DNA of 64,000 nt from Bacteroidia bacterium (GTDB taxonomy: Bacteria > Bacteroidota > Bacteroidia > M30B66), in contig OZ257142.1 in NCBI GenBank assembly GCA_965279035.1, forward strand, positions 1,248,001 to 1,312,000. Direction: 5' to 3'. A program made the translations under genes and the position numbers. How positions within the stretch are numbered: the first letter of the stretch is position 1; every line of letters begins with the position of its first letter. Positions 17,538 to 64,000 of the stretch are shown in pieces. The notes under the pieces were generated by a model that was not told where the DNA came from, did no database searches, and was given only the letters and a program-made list of their open reading frames with translations.

Positions 17538-19004
17538 TCAATAATAGGTCAATCGAATAACATCAGCAATGTGTTTTGCATAACGTATTACCTGACGTGT
17601 GTAGCCATATTCGTTATCGTACCAAACATACAATACAATGTTGCGTTTATCATTAGCTACGATAGTTGCAGGGCTATCTACAATGGATGCACATGGATTC
17701 CCAATCAAATCGCTTGATACCAATTCATTCGAAATCGAATATTGAATTTGTTCTACTAGATCTCCTTTTAAAGCAGCATTTCTTAAAACGCTGTTTACAT
17801 CATCTTTACTTGTATCAGTTTCAACTGTGAGTTTTAAAATCGCTAATGAAACATCGGGTGTTGGTACTCTCACAGAATTGGAAGTCAATTTACCTGCTAA
17901 TTCTGGAATTACCTTCGTTACAGCACTTCCTGCACCTGTTTCTGTAATAACCATATTCAATGCAGCAGAACGACCTCTACGGTATTTCTTATGGAAATTA
18001 TCCAATAAATTCTGATCGTTTGTATAAGAGTGAATAGTTTCGATATGACCAGTTGAAATTCCTAGATTTTTCTGAATCACTTTTAGAATTGGAACAATCG
18101 CATTGGTCGTACATGAAGCAGCTGAAAATATAGTTTCAGTTGTATGGTCGCATGATGCATGATTTACCCCATGAACAATATTAGGAATATCTCCTTTTCC
18201 TGGAGCAGTTAACAATACTTTACCAATCCCTTTCGCTTTTAAATGCTCGCTTAATCCTTCACGATCACGAGATGATCCTGTGTTGTCGATTAACAATGCA
18301 TCATGAATCCCAAATGAACTATAATCAATTTCTGCTGGATTACTTCCTGCAATCATTTTGACTGTATGTCCATTTATGATTAGTGCTTTATTTTCAAAAT
18401 CTTCGATCACAGTTCCTGGAAATGGACCATGCACTGAATCTGTTCTTAATAAAGCAGCTCTTTTACTAATATCTTCATTCGAATTGCTTCGTGTAACAAT
18501 AGCTCTTAATCGTAGTTGTTCACCTTTTCCAGCTTGTATAATTAACTCTCTTGCTGCAATTCTACCAATTCTACCAAAACCATATAAAACGATGTCTTTG
18601 GGTTTTAAAACGCGTTTGTCTTTACCTAAAAAAGAACTTAATTTATCTGAAATAAAAACAGAAGCAGATTCATAAGCTGCTTTTTCATTTAGCCATTCTG
18701 TTGCTAATCGTCCAATATCTAATCTTGCAGGTGCAATTTCAGCTGAAAGAATTTCTTTCGCTAGCAATAATGTATCTTGAATAGTAATCGGTTTTCCAAC
18801 CATATTCAACGCATAATTATGCAATTGAAGAATCTCACTCGCACTTCTATCAACTAATTGATTCCGAAAAATTACTAATTCAATACTGCGATCAAACCAT
18901 AATTCTCCAATAATATGGATGAGTTCAATTGCTGCTTTTTCATCCCTGATCCACTCATTCAGTTCGGTTTCATAGGCTGTAGCAGAACCATTTTCCTTTG
19001 ACAT
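17538..19004 (-). CDS. gap: Glyceraldehyde-3-phosphate dehydrogenase, long form with N-terminal extension
   Basis: GFGRIGR, AASCTTNA, RVPT, WYDNEYGY; ~135 aa N-terminal extension. Confidence 0.93.
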   Translation of the reverse strand: MSKENGSATAYETELNEWIRDEKAAIELIHIIGELWFDRSIELVIFRNQLVDRSASEILQLHNYALNMVGKPITIQDTLLLAKEILSAEIAPARLDIGRLATEWLNEKAAYESASVFISDKLSSFLGKDKRVLKPKDIVLYGFGRIGRIAARELIIQAGKGEQLRLRAIVTRSNSNEDISKRAALLRTDSVHGPFPGTVIEDFENKALIINGHTVKMIAGSNPAEIDYSSFGIHDALLIDNTGSSRDREGLSEHLKAKGIGKVLLTAPGKGDIPNIVHGVNHASCDHTTETIFSAASCTTNAIVPILKVIQKNLGISTGHIETIHSYTNDQNLLDNFHKKYRRGRSAALNMVITETGAGSAVTKVIPELAGKLTSNSVRVPTPDVSLAILKLTVETDTSKDDVNSVLRNAALKGDLVEQIQYSISNELVSSDLIGNPCASIVDSPATIVANDKRNIVLYVWYDNEYGYTRQVIRYAKHIADVIRLTYY

Positions 19005-22846: not shown

Positions 22847-25800
22847 ATGAAGTTATTCTATACGTTTCTTACTTTATTCTTTTTATCAATCAGTTCAATA
22901 AATCTTAAAGCTCAAGAGGATAAATTAATTCCTCCAATAGCTCCTCGTTCATTTTGGTCAGATACCATTCATGGAGACATTCGTTTGGATGAATATCATT
23001 GGATGAGGCAGAAAACAGAACCTCAAACAATCAATCATCTCTATGCCGAAAATGGGTATTCCGACAGAGTAATGGCTGGTTCTTCATTATTAATGAAGAA
23101 AATGTTTGAAGAATTAAAAAGCCGAATTCCAGACAAAACTGAATCCTTACCATCTCGATTAAAAAAGTACCTCTATTATTCTCGATATGAATCGGGAATG
23201 GATTATCCAGTCTATTATAGAAAAGCCGATTCTTTAAATTCAACAGAGAAACTATTAATCGACTTTAATGAAATCGCAAAATCTTATAATTATTTCAATA
23301 TCGCAGCACTAGGAATTAGCCCTGACAATCAGAAAATGTATTATGGAGTTGATGGAAAAGGAGATCGAATCTTCAATCTGTATTTTAAAAATTTACAAAC
23401 TGATGCGTATTTGTCTGATACATTGAAAGGAATAAATGGTGTTTGTTGGTTAGGCAATGATGCTGTATTATATACTGTTCCAGAAGCAAATACAAAACGT
23501 TCTTTTAAAGTAATTAAACATGTTTTAGGTAGACCTTTAACCGAAGACATTCTTTTATTCGAAGAGAAGGACGTAACGTTTAATATTGGCTTATCACGTT
23601 CAGATTCAGAACGTTTTATCTTCCTTGTTAGTTCTCAAACACTTTCGGATGAAGTTTGGATTATGGACGTCCAAAACAGTGAAGCTGGATTTCGAATCAT
23701 TGAACCGCGAAGAAAAAATCATTTATATAGTTTAGAGCATTATGAAGGTGATCAATTTTACATTTTATCTGATGATAATGCTCCGAATCAAAAAATACTC
23801 ACCTGTCCAATAAATACTCCTCAACAGAAATATTGGAAAGAATTAATTCCTCATCGAAGTGATGTATTGATTGCTGGTTTTCAAATATCCAACGGGAAAA
23901 TAATTCTAACAGAACAATTCGATGCACGTCAACGTGTTGCAGTAATTGATCCTAAAGATTTATCAAAAACATATTTACCAATTCCAGAAGAACCAGCATC
24001 GGTTGGAGTAAGCGGCTATTACGAATTTAATGAACCTAAAATTCGCTATTCATTTTCCAGCAATCGATTTCCAACTGAAGTTTGGGATTATGATTTAAAT
24101 TCTGGTGAAAGAGTATTAATTCGAAGAGATACTGTGAAAGGAGGATACAATCCAGATAATTATATTTCTGAACGTATTTATGCGACTGCTTCTGATAGCA
24201 CCCAAATCCCAATAACATTAATCTATAAAAAAGGACTAAAAAAAGACGGAAATAATCCTACTTGGTTAAGCGCCTATGGTTCATATGGCAATCCTTCACT
24301 TCCAGGATTTTCAACAGGAAATTTAGCCTTATTAGATAGAGGTTTCGTGGTTGCTGAAGCTCATATTCGTGGTGGAAATGATTGTGGTCGACTTTGGTAC
24401 GAAAACGGAAAACTCCTAAAAAAGAAAAATACGTTTACTGATTTTATAGCCTGTGCAGAGAAACTAATTTCAGATGCATATACAAACCCTAAAAAATTAG
24501 CTATACAAGGCGGTAGTGCAGGAGGATTATTAATGGGAGCAGTAGTTAATATGCGTCCTGATTTATTTGCAGCTGTTGTTGCAAATGTTCCTTTTGTTGA
24601 TGTTGTAAACACAATGCTAGACCCAACATTGCCCTTAACAACCTTTGAATACGATGAATGGGGAAATCCGAATGATCCCGTTTATTATAATTACATAAAA
24701 TCCTATGCTCCTTATGAAAATGTAAAATCCCAGAATTATCCTTCGATGTTGGTTACTGGTGGTTACAATGATTCTCAAGTACCTTATTGGGAGCCAGCAA
24801 AATGGGTTGCTCGTTTAAGAGCACTTAAAACGGATTCAAACCTATTACTTCTAAAAATAAATATGGATGCCGGTCATGGCGGTAGTTCTGGGCGCTTTGG
24901 TGGACTTAAAGACCGATCATTTGAAATGGCTTTTGTTCTTCGTGCTTTAGGTGTGAAAGAGGATTATCTCACCATTAAAGGTCGTACAACCGATACGCAA
25001 GGGAACGAACTTCCTTTTGTCAATGTCTTTATTGAAGGTTCAACCATAGGAACTGCATCTAATGAAAATGGACAGTTTAGCCTTGATCTTCGGCAAAAAA
25101 ATTCTCAAAACATCGTTTTCTCATCGATTGGATTTAAAAAGAAAGTGGTCCCGATCACCTTAAAAACGGATATCAATAATTTAAAAGTAGCCCTTGAACC
25201 CGAGAATTATCAAATTAAAACGTTTGAAGTAAAAGCCAATGCAAAAGATCCTGCTTATGCGGTGATGAAAAATGCAATCAGAATGCGCAAAAGCCATCTT
25301 GAACAAGTAGATGCTTACTCTTCTGATATTTATATAAAGGGAAGCGTTCGCTTGAATGAAATCCCTAAGAAAATGCCATTCTTTATTTCGAAAGAATCTA
25401 TGCCCGATTCAAATGATTTGGGTTTAGTTTATTTATCTGAATCGGTTGCAAGATATCATGTTCGTCAACCTTCGGATTACAAAGAAGAAATGATTGCATC
25501 CAAAATAGCCGGTATGAAACAAGGCTTTAGTTGGAATCGAGTTTCTGATGTACTCTTGAATTTTTACGAAAATCTTGTTGATTTCGATTATTATGCAGAT
25601 CGTGGTTTTGTTTCTCCTGTCTCTGAATCAGCCATGTTTTATTACAAATTTAAAATGATCGGAACGTTCATAGAAAATGGGAAAACAATCAATCGAATTG
25701 CTCTAGAACCTAAACGAAAATCCGATCCATGCTTTCGTGGTGAAATCTTTATTGTGGATGATTCATGGCATATTCACAGTGTGGATATGATGCTTACAAA

Positions 25801-27394
25801 AGATGCCCAAATTCAATATGTGGATACGCTATATATCAAGCAGGAATATGTTCCTATGGAAGATAGCCTTTGGATGCCTCTATCCATGCAGCTGAAAAGT
25901 CACATTAAATTTTTTGGTTTTGGTGCAACAGATAAATCAATAGGTGTTTTTTCAAATTATAAACTTCATCCCGTATATCCGAAAAACTTTTTTGGAAATG
26001 AGGTCTTTAAAGTGGAAGATAAAGCCAATAAAAAAGACACAGTTTATTGGATTGAAACACGCCCAATGACTTTAACTCCCGAAGAAGAGCGAAACTACCG
26101 CAAAGCCGATAGCACCGAAGCTGTTCAAACGACAAAACCCTACATGGATTCTTTAGATAGAATCAACAATAAAATAAGCATTAGCAAAATGCTCATCTCT
26201 GGTCTCTCATTTCGAGATTCCTATAATAAATCAGGATTAAATATCAATCCACTCATTGCCATGGTCTCTTTTAATGCTACCGAAGGTTTGGTTTTTAAGC
26301 CTGTTGTTCAATATTATAAAGCCTATGAAGACAACCATTCCTGGTTTGTAGATGCAGAAGGTCGATATGGAGTTTCAGATAATCGATTCAAAGGTGGACT
26401 GCGTTATTGGACCATGACCAATCGGAAGAAATTTAATTGGTGGCATTTGGAAGCAGGGCGATTTGTTACTCAGTTAAACGGATCAAACCCAATTTCACCT
26501 TTAGTGAATGCAGCATATAGTTTAATCGATAAACAAAATCTAATTCGTCTTTATGATAAAACTGGTGCAACCGTCACATGGAATCGTGAAGTTGTAAATG
26601 GAATTATGCTTCAAGCTGCAGCAACATGGCAGGATCGTAAAAGTTATTCAAATAGAACAGACTACAGTTGGAGCAATAAAACACTTCAACCGTATGCATC
26701 AAACTACTCAGTAGGTTCTGATTCAATCGGAAATCAAACAAATTCTCAATTGGCTGAGATTTCAATCAAAGCGCGGTTTCGAATCAATCAGAAATATGAA
26801 TCCCGTGAGAATTTAAAAATCATCAAAGATTCTAAATGGCCTTCATTTTTTGTCGAATTATCGCAAGCCATCCCTAAAATTGCAGGTTCCGACATTCAAT
26901 ACACGCATCTTGAAGGAGCTATTGGAGATGAACTCAAATTTGGATTATTGGGAGATAGCAAATACAAAATTATTGCTGGTTGCTTTTTAGGAACATCAGG
27001 TATGCAATTCGTCGATAATCAACATTTCAATGGGAATGAGACATTTCTATTAAGAAATTTCAATTCCACCTTGCCGTTCGATTTCTTTCAGTCTTCGCTT
27101 CGTCGATTTAACGCCCTGCATTATTACTCAAACAGTACAAATAACTCTTACCTTGAAATTCATTATGAGCACCAGTTCTATAATTGGTTAACGAATAAAG
27201 TTCCATTGTTGAGAAAAACATTATTTGGAACTGTTGCTGGAGCTAATATTCTTTGGGTAGATCATCACCCATTATACTCCGAACTTTATGTAGGAGTTGA
27301 TAATATTTTGAAAGTTCTTCGGATTGATTTTGTTAGTCAATATACTCCTGGGCAAGCTTTAAAACCCTTGATACGATTTGGGTTGAAACTATAA
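22847..27394 (+). CDS. Fusion of S9A oligopeptidase B, a carboxypeptidase-regulatory-like domain and a DUF5686-type outer-membrane barrel
   Basis: Signal peptide; GGSAGG, EYDEWGNP, NDSQV, AGHGG; then IKGRTTD..LPFVNV..GT.SNENGQF..FSSIGF; DPAYAVMKNAI, YLSES; C-terminal IRFGLKL. Confidence 0.85.
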   Translation: MKLFYTFLTLFFLSISSINLKAQEDKLIPPIAPRSFWSDTIHGDIRLDEYHWMRQKTEPQTINHLYAENGYSDRVMAGSSLLMKKMFEELKSRIPDKTESLPSRLKKYLYYSRYESGMDYPVYYRKADSLNSTEKLLIDFNEIAKSYNYFNIAALGISPDNQKMYYGVDGKGDRIFNLYFKNLQTDAYLSDTLKGINGVCWLGNDAVLYTVPEANTKRSFKVIKHVLGRPLTEDILLFEEKDVTFNIGLSRSDSERFIFLVSSQTLSDEVWIMDVQNSEAGFRIIEPRRKNHLYSLEHYEGDQFYILSDDNAPNQKILTCPINTPQQKYWKELIPHRSDVLIAGFQISNGKIILTEQFDARQRVAVIDPKDLSKTYLPIPEEPASVGVSGYYEFNEPKIRYSFSSNRFPTEVWDYDLNSGERVLIRRDTVKGGYNPDNYISERIYATASDSTQIPITLIYKKGLKKDGNNPTWLSAYGSYGNPSLPGFSTGNLALLDRGFVVAEAHIRGGNDCGRLWYENGKLLKKKNTFTDFIACAEKLISDAYTNPKKLAIQGGSAGGLLMGAVVNMRPDLFAAVVANVPFVDVVNTMLDPTLPLTTFEYDEWGNPNDPVYYNYIKSYAPYENVKSQNYPSMLVTGGYNDSQVPYWEPAKWVARLRALKTDSNLLLLKINMDAGHGGSSGRFGGLKDRSFEMAFVLRALGVKEDYLTIKGRTTDTQGNELPFVNVFIEGSTIGTASNENGQFSLDLRQKNSQNIVFSSIGFKKKVVPITLKTDINNLKVALEPENYQIKTFEVKANAKDPAYAVMKNAIRMRKSHLEQVDAYSSDIYIKGSVRLNEIPKKMPFFISKESMPDSNDLGLVYLSESVARYHVRQPSDYKEEMIASKIAGMKQGFSWNRVSDVLLNFYENLVDFDYYADRGFVSPVSESAMFYYKFKMIGTFIENGKTINRIALEPKRKSDPCFRGEIFIVDDSWHIHSVDMMLTKDAQIQYVDTLYIKQEYVPMEDSLWMPLSMQLKSHIKFFGFGATDKSIGVFSNYKLHPVYPKNFFGNEVFKVEDKANKKDTVYWIETRPMTLTPEEERNYRKADSTEAVQTTKPYMDSLDRINNKISISKMLISGLSFRDSYNKSGLNINPLIAMVSFNATEGLVFKPVVQYYKAYEDNHSWFVDAEGRYGVSDNRFKGGLRYWTMTNRKKFNWWHLEAGRFVTQLNGSNPISPLVNAAYSLIDKQNLIRLYDKTGATVTWNREVVNGIMLQAAATWQDRKSYSNRTDYSWSNKTLQPYASNYSVGSDSIGNQTNSQLAEISIKARFRINQKYESRENLKIIKDSKWPSFFVELSQAIPKIAGSDIQYTHLEGAIGDELKFGLLGDSKYKIIAGCFLGTSGMQFVDNQHFNGNETFLLRNFNSTLPFDFFQSSLRRFNALHYYSNSTNNSYLEIHYEHQFYNWLTNKVPLLRKTLFGTVAGANILWVDHHPLYSELYVGVDNILKVLRIDFVSQYTPGQALKPLIRFGLKL

Positions 27395-31137: not shown

Positions 31138-31860
31138 TTATTTTATTCCTGTGTACAGACTTACGATTCCGAAAGTTACACGCTTTGCTTGCAATCCTTT
31201 GAAACCACTATTCTTAGCAATGGAAAGAAATTGATCTCCTTCGGGAAATGCATTAACCGATTCGTATAAATAACGATAGGCTGCATTGTCTTTCGAAACC
31301 ACTTTCCCCCACCAAGGGCAAAAGTACCTGAAATAGAAATCATAAAGTTGCCTAATTGGAAAAATTCTTGGACGAGAAAATTCAAGAATCACCACTTTAC
31401 CTCCTGGTTTCATTACGCGTTGCATTTCGTCCAATCCTTTACTTAATGTTTCAAAATTTCGAACACCAAATGCAACGGTAATAACATCAAACGTATTCGA
31501 TTCAAAGGGTAGGTTTTCTGAATCTCCTTGCTGCAATTGAATTAATTCCTCTAAACCATTCTTCTTCACTTTAATTCTTCCAACAGCCAACATCCCTTCC
31601 GAAATATCTACTCCAACAATTGCTTTAGGTTTTAGTTTACTTGCTGCGATCGCAACATCTGCTGTACCTGTTGCAATATCTAAAAGCTTTTCAATGTGAA
31701 GTCCTTTTAATTCCTTCATCATTTTCTTTCTCCACCAAATATCAATACCAAAGGAAAGTGATCGATTTAAAAAGTCATACTTGGAAGAAATGTTATCAAA
31801 CATCTGTTCCACTTGTTTTTTCTTTGTCTCTGATGAGCCTTCGTATGGGGTAACTTTCAT
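31138..31860 (-). CDS. ubiE: Demethylmenaquinone methyltransferase (UbiE/MenG)
   Basis: MFDNIS..YD, LDIATGTAD, AFGVRNF, YRYLYESV; ATG 31860 preferred over 31875. Confidence 0.94.
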   Translation of the reverse strand: MKVTPYEGSSETKKKQVEQMFDNISSKYDFLNRSLSFGIDIWWRKKMMKELKGLHIEKLLDIATGTADVAIAASKLKPKAIVGVDISEGMLAVGRIKVKKNGLEELIQLQQGDSENLPFESNTFDVITVAFGVRNFETLSKGLDEMQRVMKPGGKVVILEFSRPRIFPIRQLYDFYFRYFCPWWGKVVSKDNAAYRYLYESVNAFPEGDQFLSIAKNSGFKGLQAKRVTFGIVSLYTGIK

Positions 31861-31905
31861 GGTGAAGTGAAACATCGCCGGAGCGTGCTTTGTTCTTTGA
31901 AATTC

Positions 31906-32910
31906 TTATTCCGGGATTTTCTTTAATTCGACCAATGCTTCGGAAAATAGTGAAGCCGCATCAACTGGAACAACGCCAGGTTTTTCGCATACACTTCCTC
32001 CAGCAAGATTCGCAATAAATGCACTCGTTTTCATATCCGCTCCAGCTGCCATGCAAAGTGCAGCTGTACTTATTACCGTATCTCCCGCTCCGCTAACATC
32101 CGAAATTGTTACAGGTCTTGAGGATACTTGAATAATCTCACTTCCATTACTTGCAAACATTCCATATTCCGAAAGTGTAATCAAACTCCATTGATGTTGC
32201 AATTCTTTTCGTAATAATTGATCTGCATTCTTTAATGATTCCAACGATTTAGGATCTACTTCTATCTTCAAACCTTCTCGAATTTCTTTCAAGTTAGGTT
32301 TGAATAAATCCACATTTCCATAGGAAAGAAAATTACGTTTCTTCGGATCCACCGCCACAAAAATTTTCTTTTCTCGAGCAATTGAAACAATCGATTTTAT
32401 TATGGTTTCGGAGATAAGTCCTTTGTCATAATCTTCAAAAATGATCACATCAAATTCTTCTAGTTCAATCAGAGATTTCAGATGTTCCTCCAATTTTTTA
32501 GATTCATTATCGGGTAACAATTGATCATCTTCCTCATCCACACGTAATAACTGATGCTGATTCCCAATAATTCTGGTCTTTACTGTTGTTGGTCTATTTA
32601 CTTGAAGTATTCCTTTCTGAGTTAATCCTTCTTGTTCTAATAAACCTAAAAAAGTATCGCCATCTCGATCATTTCCAATAACAGATGCTAAAACCGCTTT
32701 TGCTCCTAAAGCTTGAATATTCAAAGCAACATTAGCTGCGCCTCCTAAACGATGTTCTTTTCTTTGAACAGCAACCACTGCTACAGGTGCTTCTGGAGAA
32801 ATTCGATCTACTTTTCCCCAAACATAACTATCCACCATCACATCCCCAATGATGAGTACACGTTGTTTTTGGAAACATTCGAAAATCCGCTGAAGTTCCT
32901 GTTGGTTCAT
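31906..32910 (-). CDS. rfaE1: Heptose-7-phosphate kinase (RfaE domain I, PfkB family)
   Basis: IGDVMVD, RISPEAPV, LGGAANVA, PNLKE, DVSGAGDT. Confidence 0.88.
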   Translation of the reverse strand: MNQQELQRIFECFQKQRVLIIGDVMVDSYVWGKVDRISPEAPVAVVAVQRKEHRLGGAANVALNIQALGAKAVLASVIGNDRDGDTFLGLLEQEGLTQKGILQVNRPTTVKTRIIGNQHQLLRVDEEDDQLLPDNESKKLEEHLKSLIELEEFDVIIFEDYDKGLISETIIKSIVSIAREKKIFVAVDPKKRNFLSYGNVDLFKPNLKEIREGLKIEVDPKSLESLKNADQLLRKELQHQWSLITLSEYGMFASNGSEIIQVSSRPVTISDVSGAGDTVISTAALCMAAGADMKTSAFIANLAGGSVCEKPGVVPVDAASLFSEALVELKKIPE

Positions 32911-34103
32911 GCTTCTAAACTTTCAAGTCCTGCTTTTAAACGTTTAACCGATTCAATGATGATTTCCTCTGAAGTAGCATAGGATAATCGAATGGATTTA
33001 TCACAACCAAAAGCCTCTCCTCCAACTGTTGCCAAATGAAATTGATTGATGAGATACATGGTAAGCTCGATACTCGTATTAATTTGCTGCCCATTTCCTT
33101 TCTTGCCTAAAAATGCAGAAACATCAGGGAAAAAATAAAAGGCTCCTTCAGGTTCATTTACTTTCAATCCTGTAATCTCGCGCAACAATCCAAGCATTAA
33201 ATCTCGTCGTTTATGAAAGCCTTCCACCATCGGTTGAATTACTTTTGGATCAGCATTTAATGCGGCGATTGCTGCTCTTTGAGTGATGGTACAGGTTCCT
33301 GAAGTGATTTGGCCTTGAAATTTATCACATGCATCGGCAATCCATTTGGGAGCACCAATATATCCTAAACGCCAACCGGTCATAGCAAAACTTTTCGATA
33401 AGCCATTCACAGTTACTACCCGTTCTTTCATGTTAGGCAAAGAGGCGATACTACAGTGTTTTCCCTTAAAACGGATATGCTCATAAATTTCATCCGAAAT
33501 AATAATTACTTCTGGATAGTCTTGAAAAAATGAAGCTATCGATTCTAATTCTTGTCGCGAATAAACCGATCCTGTTGGATTACATGGAGATGAGAATATC
33601 ATCATCCTCGTTTTATCCGAAATAGATGGTCGAAGTTGATCTGGTGTTACTTTAAAATCCTGCTCAATTCCAGCATAAATCACCTTAGGAATTCCTCCTG
33701 CAAGTTTAATAATCTCAATATAACTCACCCAATAAGGTGCAGGTAATAAAACCTCGTCGCCTGGATTTATTAAACTCAAAATCGCATTCGCAATTGATTG
33801 TTTAGCTCCTGTAGAAACTACAATCTGATCGGGGGCATATTCAATAGCATTATCTCTTTTAAATTTCAACGAAACCGCTTCTCGAAGTTCTGGATATCCA
33901 GCAACTGGAGGATAATGCGTAAAATTTTCATCTATAGCTTTTTTAGCTGCTTCCTTTATGAACATTGGAGTGTCATAATCGGGTTCACCAAGGCTAAGAC
34001 TAATAACATCTATTCCTTGTGCTTTTAATTCCCTTGTTCGGCGCGCCATTGCCAGAGTCTCAGACTCACTGAGTACCATTAGCCTATTGGATACACGGTT
34101 CAT
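32907..34103 (-). CDS. Class I PLP aminotransferase (aspartate aminotransferase-like)
   Basis: GEPDY, STGAKQ, PCNPTG, SDEIY, SKSFAMTGWRLG. Confidence 0.93.
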   Translation of the reverse strand: MNRVSNRLMVLSESETLAMARRTRELKAQGIDVISLSLGEPDYDTPMFIKEAAKKAIDENFTHYPPVAGYPELREAVSLKFKRDNAIEYAPDQIVVSTGAKQSIANAILSLINPGDEVLLPAPYWVSYIEIIKLAGGIPKVIYAGIEQDFKVTPDQLRPSISDKTRMMIFSSPCNPTGSVYSRQELESIASFFQDYPEVIIISDEIYEHIRFKGKHCSIASLPNMKERVVTVNGLSKSFAMTGWRLGYIGAPKWIADACDKFQGQITSGTCTITQRAAIAALNADPKVIQPMVEGFHKRRDLMLGLLREITGLKVNEPEGAFYFFPDVSAFLGKKGNGQQINTSIELTMYLINQFHLATVGGEAFGCDKSIRLSYATSEEIIIESVKRLKAGLESLEA

Positions 34104-34213
34104 TTTGTGTTGATTTTGGCCTGCGAAACTACGTGAATTTTTAGAATCGAAAGGAATCGAGTAATATTGCAGCCCGGTTGCAGTTTACAGAAAAGTCCGG
34201 TACCCTTCTGCCA

Positions 34214-35146
34214 ATGCGCATTTCGGCTTCAATTAGCTCTATTCAACAACGACAAATTCCTTCTACAGTTAATCAACTAGATGAAGCAGGTGTCAACTTT
34301 TACCATTTGGATAGTGTTGAAAACCGGGAGATATTCACTTTTGCGAAAATGCTTGGAGGTTTAACTAAAACCCCCATGGATCTTCATCTCATCACTTCTG
34401 ATCCAGTTAAATATTGGGATGAAATAAGAAATTCAGGTATCATTTCTACGGTCATTCAATTAGAATCATTGCATTCTACGCTTTTCGTACCAGTAGATCT
34501 TCGTGGAAAAGTTGGCCTTGCAATACTTTCCTCTAGCTCACCCGAATTATTTCGTCCTTACGAGAAAGTAGCTTCTTGTCTTTTAATCATGACTACAACT
34601 CCCGGTTATAGTGGCGGGAAATTTCAAAAAGAACAATTCGCTAACATCATTCGGTTTCGCATACTTTATCCAAGAACTCCATTAATTGTTGATGGTGGTG
34701 TGAATGCAGATGTAGCATCAGTTTTACAACTTTTAGGAATTGAGCAAGTTGTTTCTGGATCCTACCTTTTTTCTGGAGAATCGATTCATGAAACAGTGAA
34801 TAATCTTCGTGAAGAACCAATAAAAGACCAACGTTTAGTTGATATTCTTCTTGCTGAACCAGAAATCCTTTCTAATCTCGATTTGAGACTACCCGAAATG
34901 ATTCATTTCATCAATGAACAAGGAGTGATATCCAAACGTTTAATTCCCGATTCTTGGCTTTCTTCCATTGGTGCTAAAACGGTCGCTATGCATTTTAGTC
35001 CTTTCCCTGTTATCTGGGCCGATGAACGTTTATCGCTCAATACCTTAAACACAATTCTGCCTTCTTTGTCTGAACAACCTCATATTGTCATTACAATCAA
35101 TGAAGCGGAAGAAGTTTCCGGGTTGATTTGTTTGACTTCATATTAA
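34214..35146 (+). CDS. Divergent ribulose-phosphate 3-epimerase-fold protein with degenerate CBS-like C-terminus
   Basis: MRISASI, HLD, DLH, MTTTPGYSGGKF, VDGGVN, VSGSYLF; ~105 aa tail ending TINEAEEVSGLI; start moved to ATG 34214. Confidence 0.75.
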   Translation: MRISASISSIQQRQIPSTVNQLDEAGVNFYHLDSVENREIFTFAKMLGGLTKTPMDLHLITSDPVKYWDEIRNSGIISTVIQLESLHSTLFVPVDLRGKVGLAILSSSSPELFRPYEKVASCLLIMTTTPGYSGGKFQKEQFANIIRFRILYPRTPLIVDGGVNADVASVLQLLGIEQVVSGSYLFSGESIHETVNNLREEPIKDQRLVDILLAEPEILSNLDLRLPEMIHFINEQGVISKRLIPDSWLSSIGAKTVAMHFSPFPVIWADERLSLNTLNTILPSLSEQPHIVITINEAEEVSGLICLTSY

Positions 35147-35152
35147 CTTCCT

Positions 35153-36151
35153 ATGATTCTTCATTTACAACATACGCTTTCAACATATAAAACAGCCGAA
35201 CTTGCTTTAAAACACCAAGCTGTTTTTTATTCAAATAAGGAGAATATCATATTTGTCCTACCTTCAGCAATTAAGTCGGTTCCCGAAGAATTAAAACCCT
35301 TTACTGAAGAGTCTTGGGTTACTGATTCGGATATTCAACTCGCTTCAAAATCGTATCGGAAAAATATACGTGAAGTTCGTTGGGGCAATACCGTTATTGG
35401 TGGTGATTCTAGATCAACAGTGATGATTGCTGGCCCTTGTTCCGTTGAATCAGAAGAACAACTCGAATCAACAGCATCGCTTCTCAATGAATTGAATATT
35501 AAAAACATGAGAGCCGGAGCATTCAAACCAAGAACATCGCCTTATTCATTTCAAGGAATGGGTGAAGATGGTTTGAAATTATTGGCTAAAATGCGTGAAA
35601 AATATGGGTTTTCTATTGTTACTGAAGTTCGCGATGCTACCAATGTAGAAGCCATTATCGAATATGCAGATGTGATTCAAATTGGTGCCAAATCAATGTA
35701 TGATCATGGAATTTTACGTCGTTGTGGAAAAGCAAATAAACCCGTTTTACTTAAGCGTGGATTCGGTTCTACGTTACAAGAGTTTGTTCAATGTGCTGAA
35801 TTTATTCTCTCTGGAGGAAATGAAAATGTGATGCTTTGTGAACGTGGAATAAGAACCTTCGAAACGAAAACACGCTTTACCCTCGATTTATGTGGTGTTT
35901 CATATCTGAAAGAATACACAAATCTTCCTGTTGTTTTAGATCCTAGTCATGCAATGGGTTATGCATACGGAGTCGCTGATCTTTCTCGTGCATGTATCGC
36001 CATGGGAATTGATGGACTTCTTGTAGAAACTCATCCAAATCCTAAAGTCGCGAAATCGGATGCCTCGCAACAATTAAATCATGATGAGTTCAGAGCATTA
36101 ATGCAAACGCTTAACCCTGTAGCTCTAGCTGTAGGATATAAAATGGTATAA
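35153..36151 (+). CDS. Type I-beta DAH7P synthase-like aldolase
   Basis: IAGPCSVE, FKPRTSPYSFQG, LKRG, CERGIRTF, DPSH, ETHP, SD; ~65 aa N-terminal domain. Confidence 0.88.
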   Translation: MILHLQHTLSTYKTAELALKHQAVFYSNKENIIFVLPSAIKSVPEELKPFTEESWVTDSDIQLASKSYRKNIREVRWGNTVIGGDSRSTVMIAGPCSVESEEQLESTASLLNELNIKNMRAGAFKPRTSPYSFQGMGEDGLKLLAKMREKYGFSIVTEVRDATNVEAIIEYADVIQIGAKSMYDHGILRRCGKANKPVLLKRGFGSTLQEFVQCAEFILSGGNENVMLCERGIRTFETKTRFTLDLCGVSYLKEYTNLPVVLDPSHAMGYAYGVADLSRACIAMGIDGLLVETHPNPKVAKSDASQQLNHDEFRALMQTLNPVALAVGYKMV

Positions 36152-36840
36152 TGAATCTTCTTAAAAAAAATACTGCTTTTTTACTTCAAAATTCAACTCA
36201 TTCATCATTCATTAGCAATGCGTTAAAAGAGAAGTTGCATCTTTATGTGAATGGCTCTACTGATCTTATATCACCTGAAGTTTTAACAGAAATTTCGGCT
36301 GAAATAGGATGGCTTATTGATACGCTCATTCAAGAAGATATCTCAACTCAATCGCTCGTTCCGAGTGAAATTAAAATGCTCGTGTTCGATGTTGATGGTG
36401 TGATGACCGATGCTGGAATGTATTATTCAGAATCGGGTGATGAGTTTAAGAAATTCAATGCACGCGATGGACTTGCAATTCGAGAATTAAATAAAAGTGG
36501 TTGGCTTACAGGAATAATCAGCCATGGAATAAATATTAATTTGATTCAACGTCGTGCCGATTTATTGGGAATTCAACACGTATATGCTGGAAATAAACCA
36601 AAAACAGATGTCTTGGCCGATTGGTGTAATCAACTGGGATTAACTTTTTCTCAAATAGGGTACATCGGTGATGATATAAACGATCTACCAATCATACGGA
36701 TAGTTGGCTTTTCTGCTTGCCCCGCAGATGCAGCGAATGAAGTAAAAAAGGAAGTCAATCTTGTTCTCTCCACCAAAGGGGGTGAAGGGGCAATTCGTGA
36801 ATGGATTGATCGTTGTTTTTCTAAATCAGCCTCCATTTAA
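36151..36840 (+). CDS. KdsC-family HAD phosphatase with N-terminal XRE-HTH-like extension
   Basis: FDVDGVMTD, KFNARDG, GDDIND, ACPADA, GGEGAIRE; TAATG-coupled to the upstream gene. Confidence 0.87.
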   Translation: MNLLKKNTAFLLQNSTHSSFISNALKEKLHLYVNGSTDLISPEVLTEISAEIGWLIDTLIQEDISTQSLVPSEIKMLVFDVDGVMTDAGMYYSESGDEFKKFNARDGLAIRELNKSGWLTGIISHGININLIQRRADLLGIQHVYAGNKPKTDVLADWCNQLGLTFSQIGYIGDDINDLPIIRIVGFSACPADAANEVKKEVNLVLSTKGGEGAIREWIDRCFSKSASI

Positions 36841-36870
36841 TAACACATTTCAAAGCAATACTAACCTTTT

Positions 36871-36878
36871 TACCTTTG
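36871..36878 (+). promoter_or_regulatory. -7 promoter element (TACCTTTG) of hemE
   Basis: Exact TAnnTTTG ending 4 nt before the ATG. Confidence 0.65.
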
Positions 36879-38773: not shown

Positions 38774-40471
<1,698 letters not shown>

Positions 40472-46508: not shown

Positions 46509-46550
46509 TTTTCACGGACATACATATATATGTATCAAGAACGAGAGACA

Positions 46551-49500
46551 ATGAAAAAACTATACTCCATTTTTATCACACTGCTTCTTTTGACTTTTGC
46601 GTCAAATAGTTTAAAAGCACAATGTCCTTACGATAATAATTTCTACACTACACTTAGTGCTCCTTCTGTAATAGGTGCTTCTGTTGGTGGCGGAGATTGT
46701 ATCTATGCTGGTGAATATTACAGAATTTCTGGACTTCAGGCTGGAAGTACATATCGAATATCCACTTGTAATACTACTGACGTAGCAGATACTCGTGTTA
46801 CTGTTTATGCCGAAGGTGGTGTAGGTGCTGCATTAACATTTAATGATGATTTTTGTGGACTACTCTCTAGAGTTGATTTTACTCCATCAGTTTCTGGAAA
46901 TTATGATGTACTTGTAGATGCAACTGGTTCAGGTAATACATGCGTTAGTATTAATGAATGTGTAGAATTAACAGTTACACTTATTGGAACTTCTGGATCT
47001 GTTTCATATTGTATTCCTTCTTATACTGTGGGAACTTCAAACGGAGACTTTATAAATGGTGTTAGTCTTGGTTTAATTAATAATCAAAATTCTGGATCAG
47101 CTTCTGGTCCTGCTTATCATGATTATACAAATTTGGCAACGAGTTTAAATTCATCATCTTCATATACTCTTGCAGTAAAAAATAATCCTGATTTCTCTGA
47201 AATTGTTTCTGCATGGATTGATTATAATCAAGATTTTGAATTTTCTGAAGATGAAAGATTAGGTCAAGTTTCCATTGCGGCAAATGGCACTGGAAATATT
47301 AATTTCACAACAGCATCAAATCCATTGGCTGGACCAACTCGTATGCGAGTTAGAATGGTTTTTTCTGTTCCAGTTTCTGGCGGCTCTGTTTCTCCTTGTT
47401 TATCATCTCAATTTGGTGAAACCGAAGACTATACTGTAAATTTCTCATCAGACCCTCCAGGGCCACCTTCAGCATTAACATTTTCAACTGCTTGTGGTTT
47501 ATCCACTTCAATTCAAGACAACGCCTGTCCTAATAATACATTATCAACAGTTACTGTATCTGGCTTAACTAGTTTAGGTACTGGTCATATTTTGACTTCT
47601 GCTGCTATAATTATTGAGCATCCAATGGCTGCTGATCTTGATATTTATCTTGAGTCTCCAACTGGTGAGATTGTAGAATTATCAACTGATAATGGAGGTT
47701 CAGGTTCTGATTACGGACAATATACAATTGGTAATTGTTCGCAAACAGCTAAGTTCATTATGTCTGCTTCTACTCCTGTTTCAGGAAGCAGCGCACCATT
47801 TATTGGGTCATACATTCCAGAAGGAGATTTGAATAATTTTAATGCTGGGGTAAATCCTAATGGATTGTGGAAGCTTCGTGTTTGTGATGATTTTTCTGGT
47901 GACATTGGAACAATTCGATATTTTGAATTGAATTTTGACCTAAATGCAACAGAACCACCTGCATGTGCAGATTCCTACACAATCATTGATGGTTCATCTA
48001 ACGTTGAATTGAATCAAATTCTAAGTTGGACCGCAGGAAGTGGTAATCCAACTTCTTACGATGTATACTTCGGAACAGCAGTTGATGCCTTGGTTCTTGT
48101 TTCTAATAATCAATCGGGAACTAGTTTTGATCCAGGAGCTTATAATCCCAATACAACATATTATTATCAAGTTATTCCATCTAATAATGCTGGGGATGCA
48201 ACTGGATGTCCAGTCGTTTCTTTTACAACTGTTGATGCTGGTGCAACTACTATTCTTCAAAGTAATGGTAGTGTAACAACATGTGCAGGGAATTTCTTTG
48301 ATTCAGGTGGTGTAAATGGAAACTATGATAATAACGAGTTCTCCATGTTAACCATTTATCCTGAAACACCAGGATCAGCAATTGAAGTAGATTTTACATC
48401 TTTTGACTTAGATGCATCATTCGATTTCTTAGCAATTGCAGATGGAATTGATGGAAATGCTCCTGTAATAGGCTTATACTCAGGCAATACATCTCCTGGT
48501 ACTGTTACTGCGACAAATCCTGATGGAGCATTAACTTTCTTATTCTCTTCAGATGATATTGGAACTTTTGATGGTTGGGTTGCAACTGTTAATTGCGTTC
48601 CTCTTCAAGCTTTACCTGAATGTTCTGTCAATAACTTACCTTCAGATGGATCGGTAGATCAATCGATAACTTCTCAACTCTCATGGGATGCTGTTTCTGG
48701 AGCAACAGGATATGATGTATATTTTGGTACTGATGCAAATCCAGTTTTAGTTGCTTCTGGTATTACTGAAATTACCTATGATCCAGGTGTCCTTTTAAAT
48801 CAAACAATCTATTACTATAAGATTGTACCTGTGAATTTAAATGGTTCTGCAGTATCATGTTCGACTTACAGCTTTTCAACTGTAAATGCTCCGGGGAATA
48901 TTATTTTGATGCAAGAAGGAACTGTATCTACTTGTGATGCTCAATTCTTTGATAGCGGAAATAGTACAAGTAATTACAGTAATGATGAAAATACAACTCT
49001 AACTATTAGTCCATCAACTGCCAATAGTGTTGTTGAAGTTGTATTTAATTCATTTGCATCAGAACAGGATTTAGACAACTTGTTAATTTACAATGGTTCT
49101 AATACAAGTGGTACACTACTTCAAACATTAACAGGTACTATTTCTGGGCCTGTCACTGTAACATCAACTTCTTCTGATGGAGCATTAACATTTGTTTTCT
49201 CTTCAGATTTTCAAGTAAATAATGCTGGTTGGGATGCTACAATTTCATGTATCGCTTTACCTGATGCTCCAACTTGCGTTATTCCTAGTTCACCAGTTAA
49301 TTTAGCTAGTGATGTTGCTTTAGATGCTACTTTAAGTTGGACACAAGGTGTAGGAGAAACTCCTGATTCATATGATGTTTACTTTGGAACAGCTTCTGAT
49401 GCTCTAGTATTAGTTTCTGACAACCAAGTTGGTACAAGTTATTCACCAGTTGGATTACTTAATAGTACTACATATTATTGGTCTGTTATTGCTAGTAATG

Positions 49501-52500
49501 CTGGTGGTTCGTCAGCAAATAATCCTTCAGATTGTTTTGTAAATAGTTTTACAACAATTGCTTTACCTACTACTCCTACATGTCCAGTTCTTTCTGGTCC
49601 TGCAGATGCATCAACTAATGTTGCCTTAGATGTAACACTTTCTTGGACTGCCGGTATAGGTGCACCAACAGAATCTTACAATGTATATTTTGGAACAGCA
49701 GCTGATGCACTCGTACAACTTTCCTCTGGTGAAATATTTACAACATATTCACCTTCTTCATTATTAAATAACACTACATACTATTGGTCAATTACTGCAA
49801 CTAATACAGAAGGTACTTCTTCAAATTGTGATGTATACAACTTTACTACATTACCTGTTGTTCTTGAAGCACCATCTTGTGTTGTACCTTCTTCACCAAT
49901 TGATGCTGCAATTGATATAGCAATTGATGCAACCATTTCTTGGAGTGCTGGCTTAGGTGGAGCTCCAGATTCATATGATGTTTATTTCGGAACTGCAGCA
50001 GATGCATTAGTTTTAGTTTCTAATGATCAAGTTGGAACAAGCTATACTCCAACTGGAATGTTAAATGGCACTACCTATTACTGGTCTGTTATCGCAACTA
50101 ATACAGCCGGATCTTCTGCAAATATTCCTGCAGATTGTTTTGTAAATAGTTTCACTACTATCGACCAAGTTAATCCTACAGATATCATTATGCAAAATGG
50201 ATCTGTAACTGCTTGTTCAGGTAACTTCTACGATTCTGGATCTTTGGCAGATAATTATTCAGATGATGAATCTTATGTTTTAACTGTTACTCCTGATGTT
50301 TCTGGAAATTTATTACAAGTAAATTTCACAGCTTTTGATGTTGAGCAAGATTTTGATTCTCTATACGTATACGATGGTAATTCCATAGCGGCTCCATTGA
50401 TTGGAGCTTATTCAGGAACTCTAACTCCTTTTATTGTTACTTCTTCTGCAACTGATGGTTCTTTAACTTTCAAATTTACTTCAGATGCAAGTGCAAATTT
50501 TGCTGGTTGGGAAGCTGAATTGTCTTGTATAGATCCTAATGTTGCTCCTTCTTGTGCAAGTAATTTATCACCTGCAGATTTATCAACAGGAATATTTACT
50601 TCTCCAACATTAACATGGGAAAATGGCGGAGGATTAGTAACAGGTTATGATGTTTATTTTGGAACTGCTTCTGATGCATTAGTTCTTGTTTCTGATAATC
50701 AAACAGGTACTTCATTTGATCCAGGAAGCTTAGATCTGAACACTACATATTACTGGCAAATTATTCCAAGTAATGGTAGTTTAGCTGCAAGTGGATGTTC
50801 AATTAATTCTTTTACAACTTCTGCAGTTCTTCAAGTATTAATGAGTAATGCTACTGTTACAACTTGTGAAGCAGAATTTTATGATTCAGGGGCAGCTGAT
50901 AATGATTATTCTCTTGAAGAATATTCATTAATTACTTTCTTACCTGAAACTCCTAATAATGCTATTCAGGTTACTTTCAATTCATTCGATTTAGAGCAAA
51001 GTACTTTTACAGGAACTATATACGATTCTTTAATTGTATATAATGGTCCAGATGCAACCTATCCAATCATTGGTGTTTACTCTGGAACTACTATTCCTGG
51101 ACCATTTGTTTCCTCAGATCCTTCAGGAGCTCTTTCATTCCATTTCTCCTCAGATGTTTCTGTAACTAGAGCTGGTTGGGATGCAAATGTTATTTGTATT
51201 TCTACTACTGATGCACCTTCATGTGCAACTAATTTTGCACCAAGTGATTTGTCTACCGATGTTTCTGTTGCTCCAGAATTAACATGGACAAGTGGTGGAG
51301 GTATTGTTACCGGATATGATGTTTATTTTGGTACTGCTTCTGATGCTTTAGTGCTAGTTTCTTCCGCTCAAACTGCGACTTCGTTTAGTCCAGGTGCTTT
51401 AGAATTAAATACTACCTATTACTGGCAAGTTGTTCCTGCAAATGGTGCTTTAAGTGCAACTGATTGTTCTGTAAATTCATTCACTACAGAAGCTGTAGCA
51501 AATATTATTATGCAGAATAATTCACTTACAGTATGTAATGCTAATTTCTTCGATTCTGGAAATTCTACAAGTGACTATACTTCTGGAGAAAACTTCACAC
51601 TTTCATTATTGCCAGCTACACCAGGAAATGTACTGGAAGTTATCTTCTCTGAATTTGATCTTGAACAAAGTACTTTTGATGGAACTATTTATGATTCTCT
51701 CATTGTTTATGATGGACCAGATGCAACATTTCCTGTAATTGGTGTTTATTCTGGAACAACAATACCAGGTCCTTTTGTTTCGACCGATGCTTCTGGTGCT
51801 TTAACGTTCCATTTTTCTTCTGATATATCTGTTACTCATGCTGGTTGGGTTGCTTCTGTTAATTGTATTGACCCTGAAGGATTACCTAATTGCGCTGAAA
51901 ACTTTAGTCCAGCAGATGCTGCTACTGATGTTTTGGTTACTTCGACTTCACTGTCATGGACATCTGGAGGAGGTAATGTAACTGGATACGATGTTTATTT
52001 TGGAACAGACATTAGTTCACTTCCAATAGTATCTCCAAATCAAGCAGGTACAACATATTCATTGGGTACCCTTGATTTGAACACAACATATTACTGGCAA
52101 ATTGTTCCAATCAATGCGAATGGCTCTGCAACAGGTTGTTCAATTAATTCATTTACAACATCTCCAAATCTTGATGTGTTAATGACTACTGCAACAATAA
52201 CAACGTGTGCTGCTAATTTCTTTGACTCGGGAGGACCTGATAATGACTATCAAAATGGAGAAAGCTCTTTAATTACTTTCATCCCTGAAACTCCTAACAG
52301 TGCAATTCAAGTTACGTTTAATACATTCGATATTGAACAAAGTACTTTCAGTAGTACGATTTACGATTCGTTAATTGTTTATAATGGACCTGATGCTACT
52401 TATCCTATTATTGGAGTTTATTCAGGTACTACTATTCCAGGTCCTTTTGTTTCATCAGATCCATCTGGAGCCCTTTCTTTCTATTTTTCTTCTGATATAT

Positions 52501-63587: not shown

Positions 63588-64000
63588 TTGTTGATTTCTT
63601 GTCTTACGAATTCAAGTAATTCTTGAACATATTCAGGTGAAAAATCAAATTTAATATCCGCCATTTCGTATAATTCCGGTAATGTTTTGGTATAGCCAAG
63701 ACTCAATGTATGCTCAAATGCACTTAATGCTTTTGTTGGGTTTGTCTTATAATTTCTCCAAATTCCAATTGCAGCAAGTTGAGCTATACCATATTCTATA
63801 TAATAAAACGGTACTTCAAAAACATGAAGTTGTCGATGCCATGCGGATTGTTCAAACTCAGGATAAGAAGTTCTATCAATGATCTTCCCTGAAAAACGGC
63901 GATAAACTGAAAGCCATGCATTTTTTCTTTCTTCTCTTGAATGATTGGGATTTTCGTAAATCCAATGTTGAAAAGCATCTATGGTTGCAATCCAAGGAAG
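63584..64000 (-). CDS. M3 family oligoendopeptidase F, 3' part (partial)
   Basis: Minus frame reads ...WHRQLHVFEVPFYYIEYGIAQLAAIGIW...LPELYEMADIKFDFS...QEINN*; not in the ORF track. Confidence 0.88.
   Translation of the reverse strand, partial: LPWIATIDAFQHWIYENPNHSREERKNAWLSVYRRFSGKIIDRTSYPEFEQSAWHRQLHVFEVPFYYIEYGIAQLAAIGIWRNYKTNPTKALSAFEHTLSLGYTKTLPELYEMADIKFDFSPEYVQELLEFVRQEINN

Follow-up and report, generated by a model that had tools for sequence, protein, structure and literature searches.

Here, we report an operon of three genes in a Bacteroidia bacterium (GTDB lineage Bacteroidota; Bacteroidia; M30B66) that very probably stands in for KdsD and KdsA in supplying KdsB and WaaA with their 3-deoxy-ulosonic acid. 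The operon lies in a 64,000-nucleotide stretch of contig OZ257142.1 (NCBI GenBank assembly GCA_965279035.1, positions 1,248,001 to 1,312,000 of the forward strand), which is the whole stretch analyzed and is called the window below; positions are window positions unless another locus is named. Kdo (3-deoxy-D-manno-octulosonate) is the sugar acid that joins lipid A to the rest of lipopolysaccharide (LPS), and its canonical route runs through KdsD (an isomerase with SIS and CBS domains), KdsA (with a KANRS motif), and KdsC. The operon encodes a ribulose-phosphate 3-epimerase (RPE)-like barrel with a degenerate CBS tail, an aldolase derived from type Ibeta 3-deoxy-D-arabino-heptulosonate 7-phosphate synthase (DAH7PS), and a KdsC-type phosphatase, and its product is, by a modest preference, predicted to be Kdo itself, made via arabinose 5-phosphate. 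The original prediction, made from the letters of the window, had taken the operon for a KdsD-KdsA-KdsC look-alike built from other parts and making a 3-deoxy-ulosonic acid, a view that our genome checks support.

The operon and its three proteins

The three genes are co-directional on the plus strand in the open reading frame (ORF) list of the window (Table 1), and the tight coupling claimed for them was confirmed from the sequence: the stop codon TAA of gene 1 (35144-35146) is followed by a 6-base spacer and the ATG of gene 2 at 35153, genes 2 and 3 share one base in TAATG (36149-36153), and gene 3 terminates with TAA at 36838-36840. The family searches also bore out what had been read of the proteins, i.e., an RPE fold with a CBS-like tail (PF00834; hhalign), a DAH7PS-like aldolase (NF006421), and a KdsC-type phosphatase (TIGR01670), as detailed below.

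Gene 1 encodes a very divergent member of the RPE fold (PF00834, 55.2 bits in Pfam), which fails both the rpe equivalog TIGR01163 (62.5 bits versus a cut-off of 212.6) and the equivalog of AlsE, the allulose-6-phosphate 3-epimerase (34 versus 271), and no NCBIfam model names it. TIGR01163 is matched by 48/48 gene 1 homologues (best E 1.3e-26), the printed scores of 62.5 and 92.5 bits lying under the cut-off. In an alignment with human RPE, H43, D45, H70, and D172 (322-aa numbering) fall on its metal and catalytic residues, and we take the metal-binding and catalytic roles of these HxD, H, and D positions from the RPE literature. All four are invariant across 13 RPE-like homologues; in the set of 48, this still holds for H70 and D172, with at least 90% conservation of H43 and D45. 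The ATG at 34214 is the favored start rather than the alternative TTG at 34178, because 11 of the 13 aligned homologues begin at the equivalent methionine (M(R/K)ISAS).

The C-terminal tail of this protein has no Pfam CBS match in the window. Homologues at 28-32% identity carry PF00571, and the tails of the window's close relatives align with the Pfam-positive CBS tails of these distant homologues (hhalign 92.9%, E 3.6e-7). Among CBS-containing families, the tail best matches the KpsF/KdsD models in 20/48 RPE-like homologues, with 73-74 bits for the tail from locus L084. The resemblance is confined to this part: gene 1 has no SIS domain and no match to the kpsF model TIGR00393 at E <=0.01, and in genomes with an RPE-like+CBS gene (carriers, below) only TIGR00393 positions ~150-267, the CBS part, were matched, with 0/9 carriers over the cut-off.

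Gene 2 passes the DAH7PS models NF006421 (359.5 bits versus a cut-off of 335) and TIGR01361 (316.6 versus 267.75) and fails the Kdo 8-phosphate synthase (KDO8PS) model TIGR01362 (127.4 versus 314). Its metal-site Cys, His, Glu, and Asp columns and the KPRTS motif are invariant in our alignment A4; a canonical KdsA from the same class carries KANRTS. What sets the aldolase apart is the loop QIGAKSMYDH, found where canonical enzymes show QIGARNxQN(F/Y), the Arg of the canonical GARN loop being the residue that binds the phosphate of phosphoenolpyruvate (PEP); GFG and HAMGYAYG mark further changed loops. The subtype signature can be written G(A/S/T)K(S/A/C)M(Y/F), replacing canonical GARNxQN, and GAK(S/A) is present in 38/41 subtype ORFs, the other 3 having been missed by the pattern. 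Among the best 150 of 8172 matches, drawn from 1.84 billion cluster representatives, the signature was seen, by pattern or alignment, in eight top-ranked entries (P0121-P0123 and P0126-P0130), and GAR or GSR in 117; the pattern match of P0125 is spurious, and the rest have no pattern match. The subtype forms a discrete clade with SH-aLRT values of 96-99 in a quick tree, the careful tree search being incomplete.

Gene 3 passes TIGR01670, the KdsC/YrbI family, over residues 74-220 (135.9 versus a cut-off of 106.95) and fails the KdsC equivalog NF007019 (131 versus 208) and the KDN-9-P phosphatase equivalog (141.6 versus 180). Its first ~75 residues (36151-36375, plus strand) have no Pfam match, and in three loci of the class-wide search beyond the window's syntenic group (L044, L048, and L050) this extension is absent, the match starts at residues 62-73, and the gene stands directly after the aldolase gene. 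In one entry, P0122 (521 aa), the aldolase subtype and a KdsC-like domain are fused in a single protein; it is Ala/Arg-rich, probably from a high-GC organism, and a possible gene-calling artefact. Loci L084 and L085 represent a divergent lineage that has kdsB, RPE-like+CBS, the aldolase, and an HAD-IA phosphatase of the beta-phosphoglucomutase family replacing KdsC; thus the constant core of the module is the RPE-like protein plus the aldolase.

Distribution against the Kdo and aromatic pathways

Presence and absence were counted in 300 sampled Bacteroidia genomes plus the four genomes of related loci. Please note that the non-carriers include two unpublished genomes (G097 and G181); without them the denominators drop by two and the conclusions stay the same. 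The RPE-like+CBS gene is found in 66/300 genomes, about a fifth, and is well separated (E <=1.3e-27, frames of 318-465 aa) from ordinary rpe (E >=1.6e-17, frames mostly of ~220-290 aa), a normal copy of which the carriers also possess. None of the 66 carriers has kdsA, versus 222/234 non-carriers. A kdsD/kpsF-like match occurs in 1/66 carriers (G298, under the family cut-off) versus 176/234 others, i.e., 177/300 in total. The aldolase subtype, set off by an E-value gap from 2.1e-128 to 2.5e-82, is present in 71/300 genomes and in 66/66 carriers; the five further genomes are G185, where a divergent RPE-like+CBS gene adjoins the aldolase gene, G112, where the contig stops at the aldolase gene, and G018, G027, and G116, discussed below. 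The later steps of the pathway are retained: kdsB scores over the cut-off in 62/66 carriers and 225/234 others, with E-values in the same range, and waaA is present in 5/5 near-complete carriers. In the four related-locus genomes, the operon aldolase is the best match to the KDO8PS model, and nothing is over its cut-off.

The aromatic pathway has DAH7PS genes of its own. A chorismate-mutase-fused DAH7PS is present in 5/5 near-complete carriers and in 3/4 related-locus genomes (the fourth being a 2.2 Mb bin), and two carriers have a further, trp-operon-linked DAH7PS with the canonical GARN motif. Beyond the operon aldolase and these aromatic-linked copies, no DAH7PS/KDO8PS family member was found in the 5 near-complete carriers, and in the loci seen the aldolase gene never adjoins aro or trp genes. 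Judged by gene content, the operon aldolase is very probably not the aromatic-pathway enzyme in carriers. The original prediction had named missing kdsA and kdsD, a second, aro-linked DAH7PS, and retained kdsB and waaA as what to look for in carriers, and the counts came out in its favor throughout.

The trait is patchy, with 20/24 genomes of the window's order and 13/121 of another order being carriers. The same two counts rule out the idea, considered and dropped, that the carriers form a single clade.

Conservation of gene order

The gene order, whose conservation the original prediction had likewise left to be checked, is conserved far beyond close relatives and more than by chance. In nine related genome loci, the trio is in order in 7/7 that reach all three genes; in the other two (L005 and L007), the contig ends inside the RPE-like gene. 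These loci are weakly informative on their own because their wider neighborhood is conserved too. The class-wide search reaches further: the RPE-like gene is directly before the aldolase gene in 20/20 best loci, at identities of 34-58% for the RPE-like protein and down to 60% for the aldolase, and the outer neighbors are kept in the first eight of these loci only. In 5/5 near-complete carriers, all three genes are adjacent as a single-copy set.

Scanning metagenomes yielded 80 loci that hold Ibeta DAH7PS-like genes, and 24 of these loci bear the aldolase signature. Directly upstream of the signature-bearing gene is an RPE-like gene in 19/24, and downstream a KdsC-like gene in 18/24; among the other signature loci, L091 has an RPE-like gene within 5 kb, two are cut by the contig end, and L086 and L125 have none. 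In the loci without the signature, an RPE-like or KdsC-like neighbor occurs in 0/56. There is also a direct link to the Kdo pathway: kdsB is co-directional and upstream of the RPE-like gene in three loci (G083/L077, L084, and L087).

Proposed pathway and alternatives

We propose that the operon is a self-contained, non-orthologous replacement of the first three steps of the CMP-Kdo pathway. The RPE-like barrel would make D-arabinose 5-phosphate from the pentose-phosphate pool, the likeliest reaction being C2 epimerization of ribose 5-phosphate via a metal-bound 1,2-enediolate; RPE and AlsE apply enediolate chemistry to ketoses. The specialized offshoot of type Ibeta DAH7PS would join this aldose phosphate to PEP, giving Kdo 8-phosphate; the aldolase would be a 3-deoxy-ulosonate-phosphate synthase, and most likely a Kdo 8-phosphate synthase. 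The KdsC-type phosphatase, going by its family membership, would then free Kdo for canonical KdsB and WaaA, whose genes lie elsewhere in the genome. An RPE-like protein making arabinose 5-phosphate on an epimerase scaffold would be an activity without known description.

What favors Kdo as the product is that the CBS tail resembles that of KdsD, that carrier KdsB has not diverged, that the operon is patchily spread, and that three genomes have both the aldolase and a kdsD-type gene. The patchy spread suggests that the product was usable at once by the recipient genomes, which is simplest if it is Kdo. As for the three genomes, G018, G027, and G116 are kdsA-positive and carry the aldolase subtype plus a kdsD-type gene, and a profile of 48 RPE-like sequences gave no match in G027 and only an rpe-sized match without the tail in G018 and G116. 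That the RPE-like gene was not found where the aldolase and a kdsD-type gene occur together is expected if the RPE-like and kdsD-type enzymes supply one substrate. In G116, kdsA, kdsD, and the aldolase gene form one tight operon, the first junction being an overlap and the second a gap of 3 bases; the aldolase there shows KPRTS and QIGAKSMYDH. In G027, the aldolase and KdsC-like pair stands directly after a gene for a 612-residue ABC exporter (ABC_membrane, ABC_tran). We also considered that KdsB might have diverged in carriers, as if its substrate differed; there is no divergence by kdsB score (weak evidence), and the idea was dropped.

Several observations weigh against arabinose 5-phosphate and Kdo, or limit how far the counts can be pressed. 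The arabinose 5-phosphate argument is weak in that it rests on three genomes, in one of which (G027) the kdsD-type match is under the cut-off. In G116, no DAH7PS-family genes were found besides those of the aldolase and KdsA, although aroC is present, and the aldolase may there be an ordinary DAH7PS or still accept erythrose 4-phosphate. The similarity of the operon aldolase is far greater to DAH7PS than to KDO8PS: its best solved relatives are the DAH7PS of A. pernix, P. furiosus, and T. maritima (254-266 bits), with KDO8PS at <=93 bits. KPRT(S) is present in every pattern-checked ORF of the subtype, and work from the Parker laboratory reportedly assigns KPRT(S) to erythrose-4-phosphate enzymes and KANRS to KDO8P synthases. 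The pentulose RPE models outscore the hexulose AlsE model for 48/48 RPE-like proteins, which would suit an aldose of four carbons slightly better than one of five. The RPE-like gene co-occurs with kdsA in 0/222 kdsA genomes, whereas another apparent KdsD replacement (below) goes with kdsA in 49; this could mean that the intermediate is not arabinose 5-phosphate. Finally, the kdsA, kdsD, and kdsB counts are those of relatives rather than of the genome that holds the window, kinship among the genomes makes the counts non-independent so that Fisher p-values overstate the case, and many of the sampled genomes are incomplete metagenome bins.

Much of this would suit the reading that the original prediction preferred, in which the RPE-like enzyme turns erythrose 4-phosphate into its C2 epimer D-threose 4-phosphate, the aldolase joins the latter to PEP, yielding 3-deoxy-D-lyxo-heptulosonate 7-phosphate, and the phosphatase frees a 7-carbon Kdo analogue; KdsB and WaaA would then put this into LPS instead of Kdo. 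We regard it as rather unlikely. The strict retention of KPRT(S), the closeness to erythrose-4-phosphate-using DAH7PS structures, the consistently better RPE scores, and the finding of the RPE-like gene never with kdsA and always with the aldolase all count for it, as do two chemical arguments: erythrose 4-phosphate is ribulose 5-phosphate minus C1, so that the RPE geometry fits directly, and the lyxo product shares the ring configuration of Kdo at C4-C6, and an unchanged KdsB is therefore compatible with a 7-carbon product. The available part of PMC8707317, on the LPS of Echinicola (a likely carrier genus), assumes Kdo rather than identifying it, which we count on the same side. In the part of PMC12199768 at hand, contacts of KdsB are named only for the C5 hydroxyl, and PMC3355719, as far as its available part goes, counts the activated form of the plant sugar Dha as not yet identified and gives no route to Dha. 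What speaks against a 7-carbon product is that the patchiness suggests transfer, so that KdsB, WaaA, and the core transferases had to take the new product at once; that carrier KdsB scores among the highest on the kdsB equivalog model; that the CBS tail is of the KdsD type; and that the aldolase occurs without the RPE-like gene in the three kdsD-type genomes, directly after kdsD in G116. The claim that KPRTS favors this reading thus stands as far as the motif is concerned, whereas the evidence overall (the CBS tail, KdsB, and the three genomes) leans to Kdo, the second reading that the original prediction had offered.

That the aldolase is instead an ordinary DAH7PS isozyme of the shikimate pathway, its neighbors having unrelated sugar-phosphate roles and Kdo coming from unrecognized enzymes, we consider very improbable. 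Carriers already have one or two aromatic-linked DAH7PS genes, and the near-complete ones retain kdsB and waaA, yet hold no other candidate of the DAH7PS/KDO8PS family; the association with RPE-like and KdsC-like genes is specific to the subtype in the metagenome loci, and the natural fusion to a KdsC-like domain and the linkage to kdsB in three loci point the same way. The aldolase does pass the NCBI DAH7PS subfamily and domain cut-offs, DAH7PS isozymes are reportedly common, and G116, with aroC and no other DAH7PS found, would suit an isozyme. The least probable alternative, in our view, is a different ulosonic acid, such as a Kdo epimer, made for a capsule or surface glycan besides or instead of the LPS inner core. 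Its best case is L084, where the cluster continues after the HAD-IA phosphatase with a methyltransferase, two ORFs without a family match, and a gene that matches surface-carbohydrate glycosyltransferase models under their cut-offs, and in E. coli kpsF and kpsU are paralogues of kdsD and kdsB that serve the capsule (PMC12199768, the part available). In most carriers, housekeeping genes surround the operon; it is the sole candidate source of a Kdo-type sugar in carriers, and the 5 near-complete ones have the gene set in one copy, all of which argues against this alternative. We therefore keep Kdo, made via arabinose 5-phosphate, as the preferred reading of the operon product.

A second apparent replacement of KdsD

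Another apparent KdsD replacement is a barrel resembling fructose-6-phosphate aldolase (FSA) and TalC (PF00923; TIGR00875, 159 bits) fused to a KdsD-type CBS pair. The full-length FSA+CBS fusion occurs in 57/300 genomes, including 49/50 with kdsA but without kdsD, where it would take the place of kdsD. A divergent KdsC-like gene comes after it in L080, and seven genomes have kdsB at a distance of 0.8-1.6 kb, on the same strand. The available parts of PMC9947464 and PMC13550131 describe the use, in synthetic pathways, of the FSA-type reaction arabinose 5-phosphate <-> glycolaldehyde + glyceraldehyde 3-phosphate.

Six operon carriers, all of the window's order, also have FSA+CBS. In 3 aligned copies (G001, G003, and G270), the Schiff-base lysine of FSA is replaced (IISLPVT, ILRVASS, and YFSLPVT versus FKIPVS), and the CBS pair is highly conserved; it is in this lineage, too, that the RPE-like protein has a degenerate CBS tail. 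The seemingly dead fusion may have a regulatory role. The loss of the lysine also rules out one candidate that we had considered, i.e., that the FSA+CBS protein of the window's order is a source of arabinose 5-phosphate and hence proves the substrate of the aldolase.

Surroundings of the operon

The upstream neighbor of the operon is an aminotransferase gene on the minus strand, divergent from it, as had been claimed. A scan for the sigma-70 consensus found 4 sites versus a shuffled mean of 9.3, and zero within the intergenic region between the two (Table 1). Downstream, TACCTTTG at 36869-36876, a candidate for the -7 promoter element of Bacteroidota, precedes hemE, which begins at 36883. The statement that no other aro gene is in the window holds for the 43 ORFs covered by the Pfam scan, none of which has a shikimate-pathway family; 4/47 long ORFs lie outside the scan, among them one labelled ubiE-like without a family search and a pyrG-like one.

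On the opposite strand, two genes upstream of the operon, lies a gene for a kinase resembling RfaE domain I (D-glycero-beta-D-manno-heptose-7-phosphate kinase; 325.9 bits versus a cut-off of 345), and elsewhere in the window is a family 9 (heptosyltransferase-type) glycosyltransferase gene. Together, these two point to a heptose-containing LPS core, as far as gene content can tell. The window further holds a single ORF of ~3690 residues, a 1515-residue protein in which a prolyl oligopeptidase (beta-propeller + S9) is joined to CarboxypepD_reg + DUF5686, and a 488-residue member of the GAPDH family that is extended N-terminally by ~135 residues before the NAD-binding domain.

Table 1. Positions of the operon, its neighbors, and related genes in the window and, where a locus is named, in other loci
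Feature	Positions	Strand	Basis
RPE-like (beta/alpha)8 barrel ending in a degenerate CBS pair; proposed aldose-phosphate supplier (gene 1)	34214..35146 (from 34178 with the alternative start)	+	PF00834
Gene 1 tail: shortened, degenerate CBS pair	34814..35143	+	hhalign to CBS-positive homologue tails
Aldolase derived from type Ibeta DAH7PS, with ~75-residue N-terminal extension (gene 2)	35153..36151	+	NF006421, TIGR01361
KdsC-type HAD phosphatase, with ~70-residue lineage-specific N-terminal extension (gene 3)	36151..36840	+	TIGR01670
Divergent intergenic region between aminotransferase gene and operon; presumed promoter region	34104..34213	.	Read from sequence
Aminotransferase gene	32907-34103	-	
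RfaE domain I-like kinase gene	31906-32910	-	
Family 9 glycosyltransferase gene	5091-6056	-	
GAPDH-family protein with N-terminal extension	17538-19004	-	
Prolyl oligopeptidase joined to CarboxypepD_reg + DUF5686	22847-27394	+	
ORF of ~3690 residues; outside Pfam scan	46530-57614	+	
ubiE-like ORF; outside Pfam scan	31138-31875		
pyrG-like ORF; outside Pfam scan	38804-40471		
ORF; outside Pfam scan	63584-64000		
kdsB, RPE-like+CBS, aldolase, HAD-IA phosphatase	L084 2808-9330	+	
kdsB, RPE-like+CBS, aldolase, HAD-IA phosphatase	L085 1071-3874	+	
kdsA-kdsD-aldolase of G116	L166 5834-8601	-	
ABC exporter, aldolase, KdsC-like of G027	L168 7134-8972	-	
FSA+CBS copy	L080 1501-2511	+	
FSA+CBS copies	L081-L083		
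FSA+CBS copy	L024 1480-2487	-	
FSA+CBS copy	L023 1483-2481	-	
FSA+CBS copy	L079 1501-2508	-	

Implications

Kdo synthesis is viewed as near-universal among Gram-negatives, in which KdsA and KdsD serve as targets for antibiotics; our counts suggest that a large, environmentally abundant part of Bacteroidia apparently manages without kdsA and kdsD. Annotation pipelines name the proteins 3-deoxy-7-phosphoheptulonate synthase, and CBS domain-containing protein or ribulose-phosphate 3-epimerase, which in metabolic reconstructions gives a false gap in LPS synthesis plus a false extra shikimate enzyme. The operon may be a variant of the known Kdo pathway with a new enzyme activity included. If so, it would be a natural example of how the Kdo pathway recruited a DAH7PS scaffold, which bears on the debated relationship of DAH7PS and KDO8PS, and possibly a new reaction on the RPE scaffold. 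Taken with the FSA+CBS fusion, it suggests that the first step of the pathway was replaced at least twice in one class, with the KdsD-type CBS pair kept each time. Were the 7-carbon reading true, about a fifth of the sampled Bacteroidia would build their LPS on 3-deoxy-D-lyxo-heptulosonate, a new inner-core sugar requiring a new enzyme activity, and would offer a bacterial model for the unknown origin of Dha in plants. Our literature search, with most subscription journals outside its coverage, returned no description of the operon, of a threose-4-phosphate route, or of a KANRS/KPRS comparison.

Comparison with known systems

The canonical KdsD-KdsA-KdsC system of E. coli shares with the operon the same three-step logic, the phosphatase family TIGR01670, and KdsB and WaaA downstream. 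The difference lies in the parts: canonical KdsD has a SIS domain, whereas the first enzyme of the operon has an RPE-type barrel with, in most lineages, a KdsD-type CBS pair; and canonical KdsA has KANRS, whereas the aldolase of the operon belongs to the DAH7PS branch and has KPRTS. Compared with RPE and AlsE, gene 1 has in common the PF00834 fold, the His/Asp/His/Asp set, and the Gly-rich phosphate-binding loops, and differs in a shorter loop after HxD, the C-terminal CBS pair, and a substrate that we propose to be an aldose phosphate rather than a ketose phosphate.

The type Ibeta DAH7PS of P. furiosus (1ZCO), A. pernix (1VS1), and T. maritima (1RZM), the closest solved relatives of the aldolase, share its KPRTS and metal-site columns; unlike them, the operon aldolase has GAK(S/A)MYD for GARNxQN and is coupled to RPE-like and KdsC-like genes. 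The P. furiosus enzyme is said, in Schofield et al. 2005, to take arabinose 5-phosphate, ribose 5-phosphate, and erythrose 4-phosphate. Within Bacteroidota, Bacteroides fragilis reportedly has a single-domain arabinose-5-phosphate isomerase (Cech et al. 2014). There, SIS is kept and CBS is absent; in the operon, SIS is gone and CBS is kept; both depart from the SIS+CBS architecture of KdsD.

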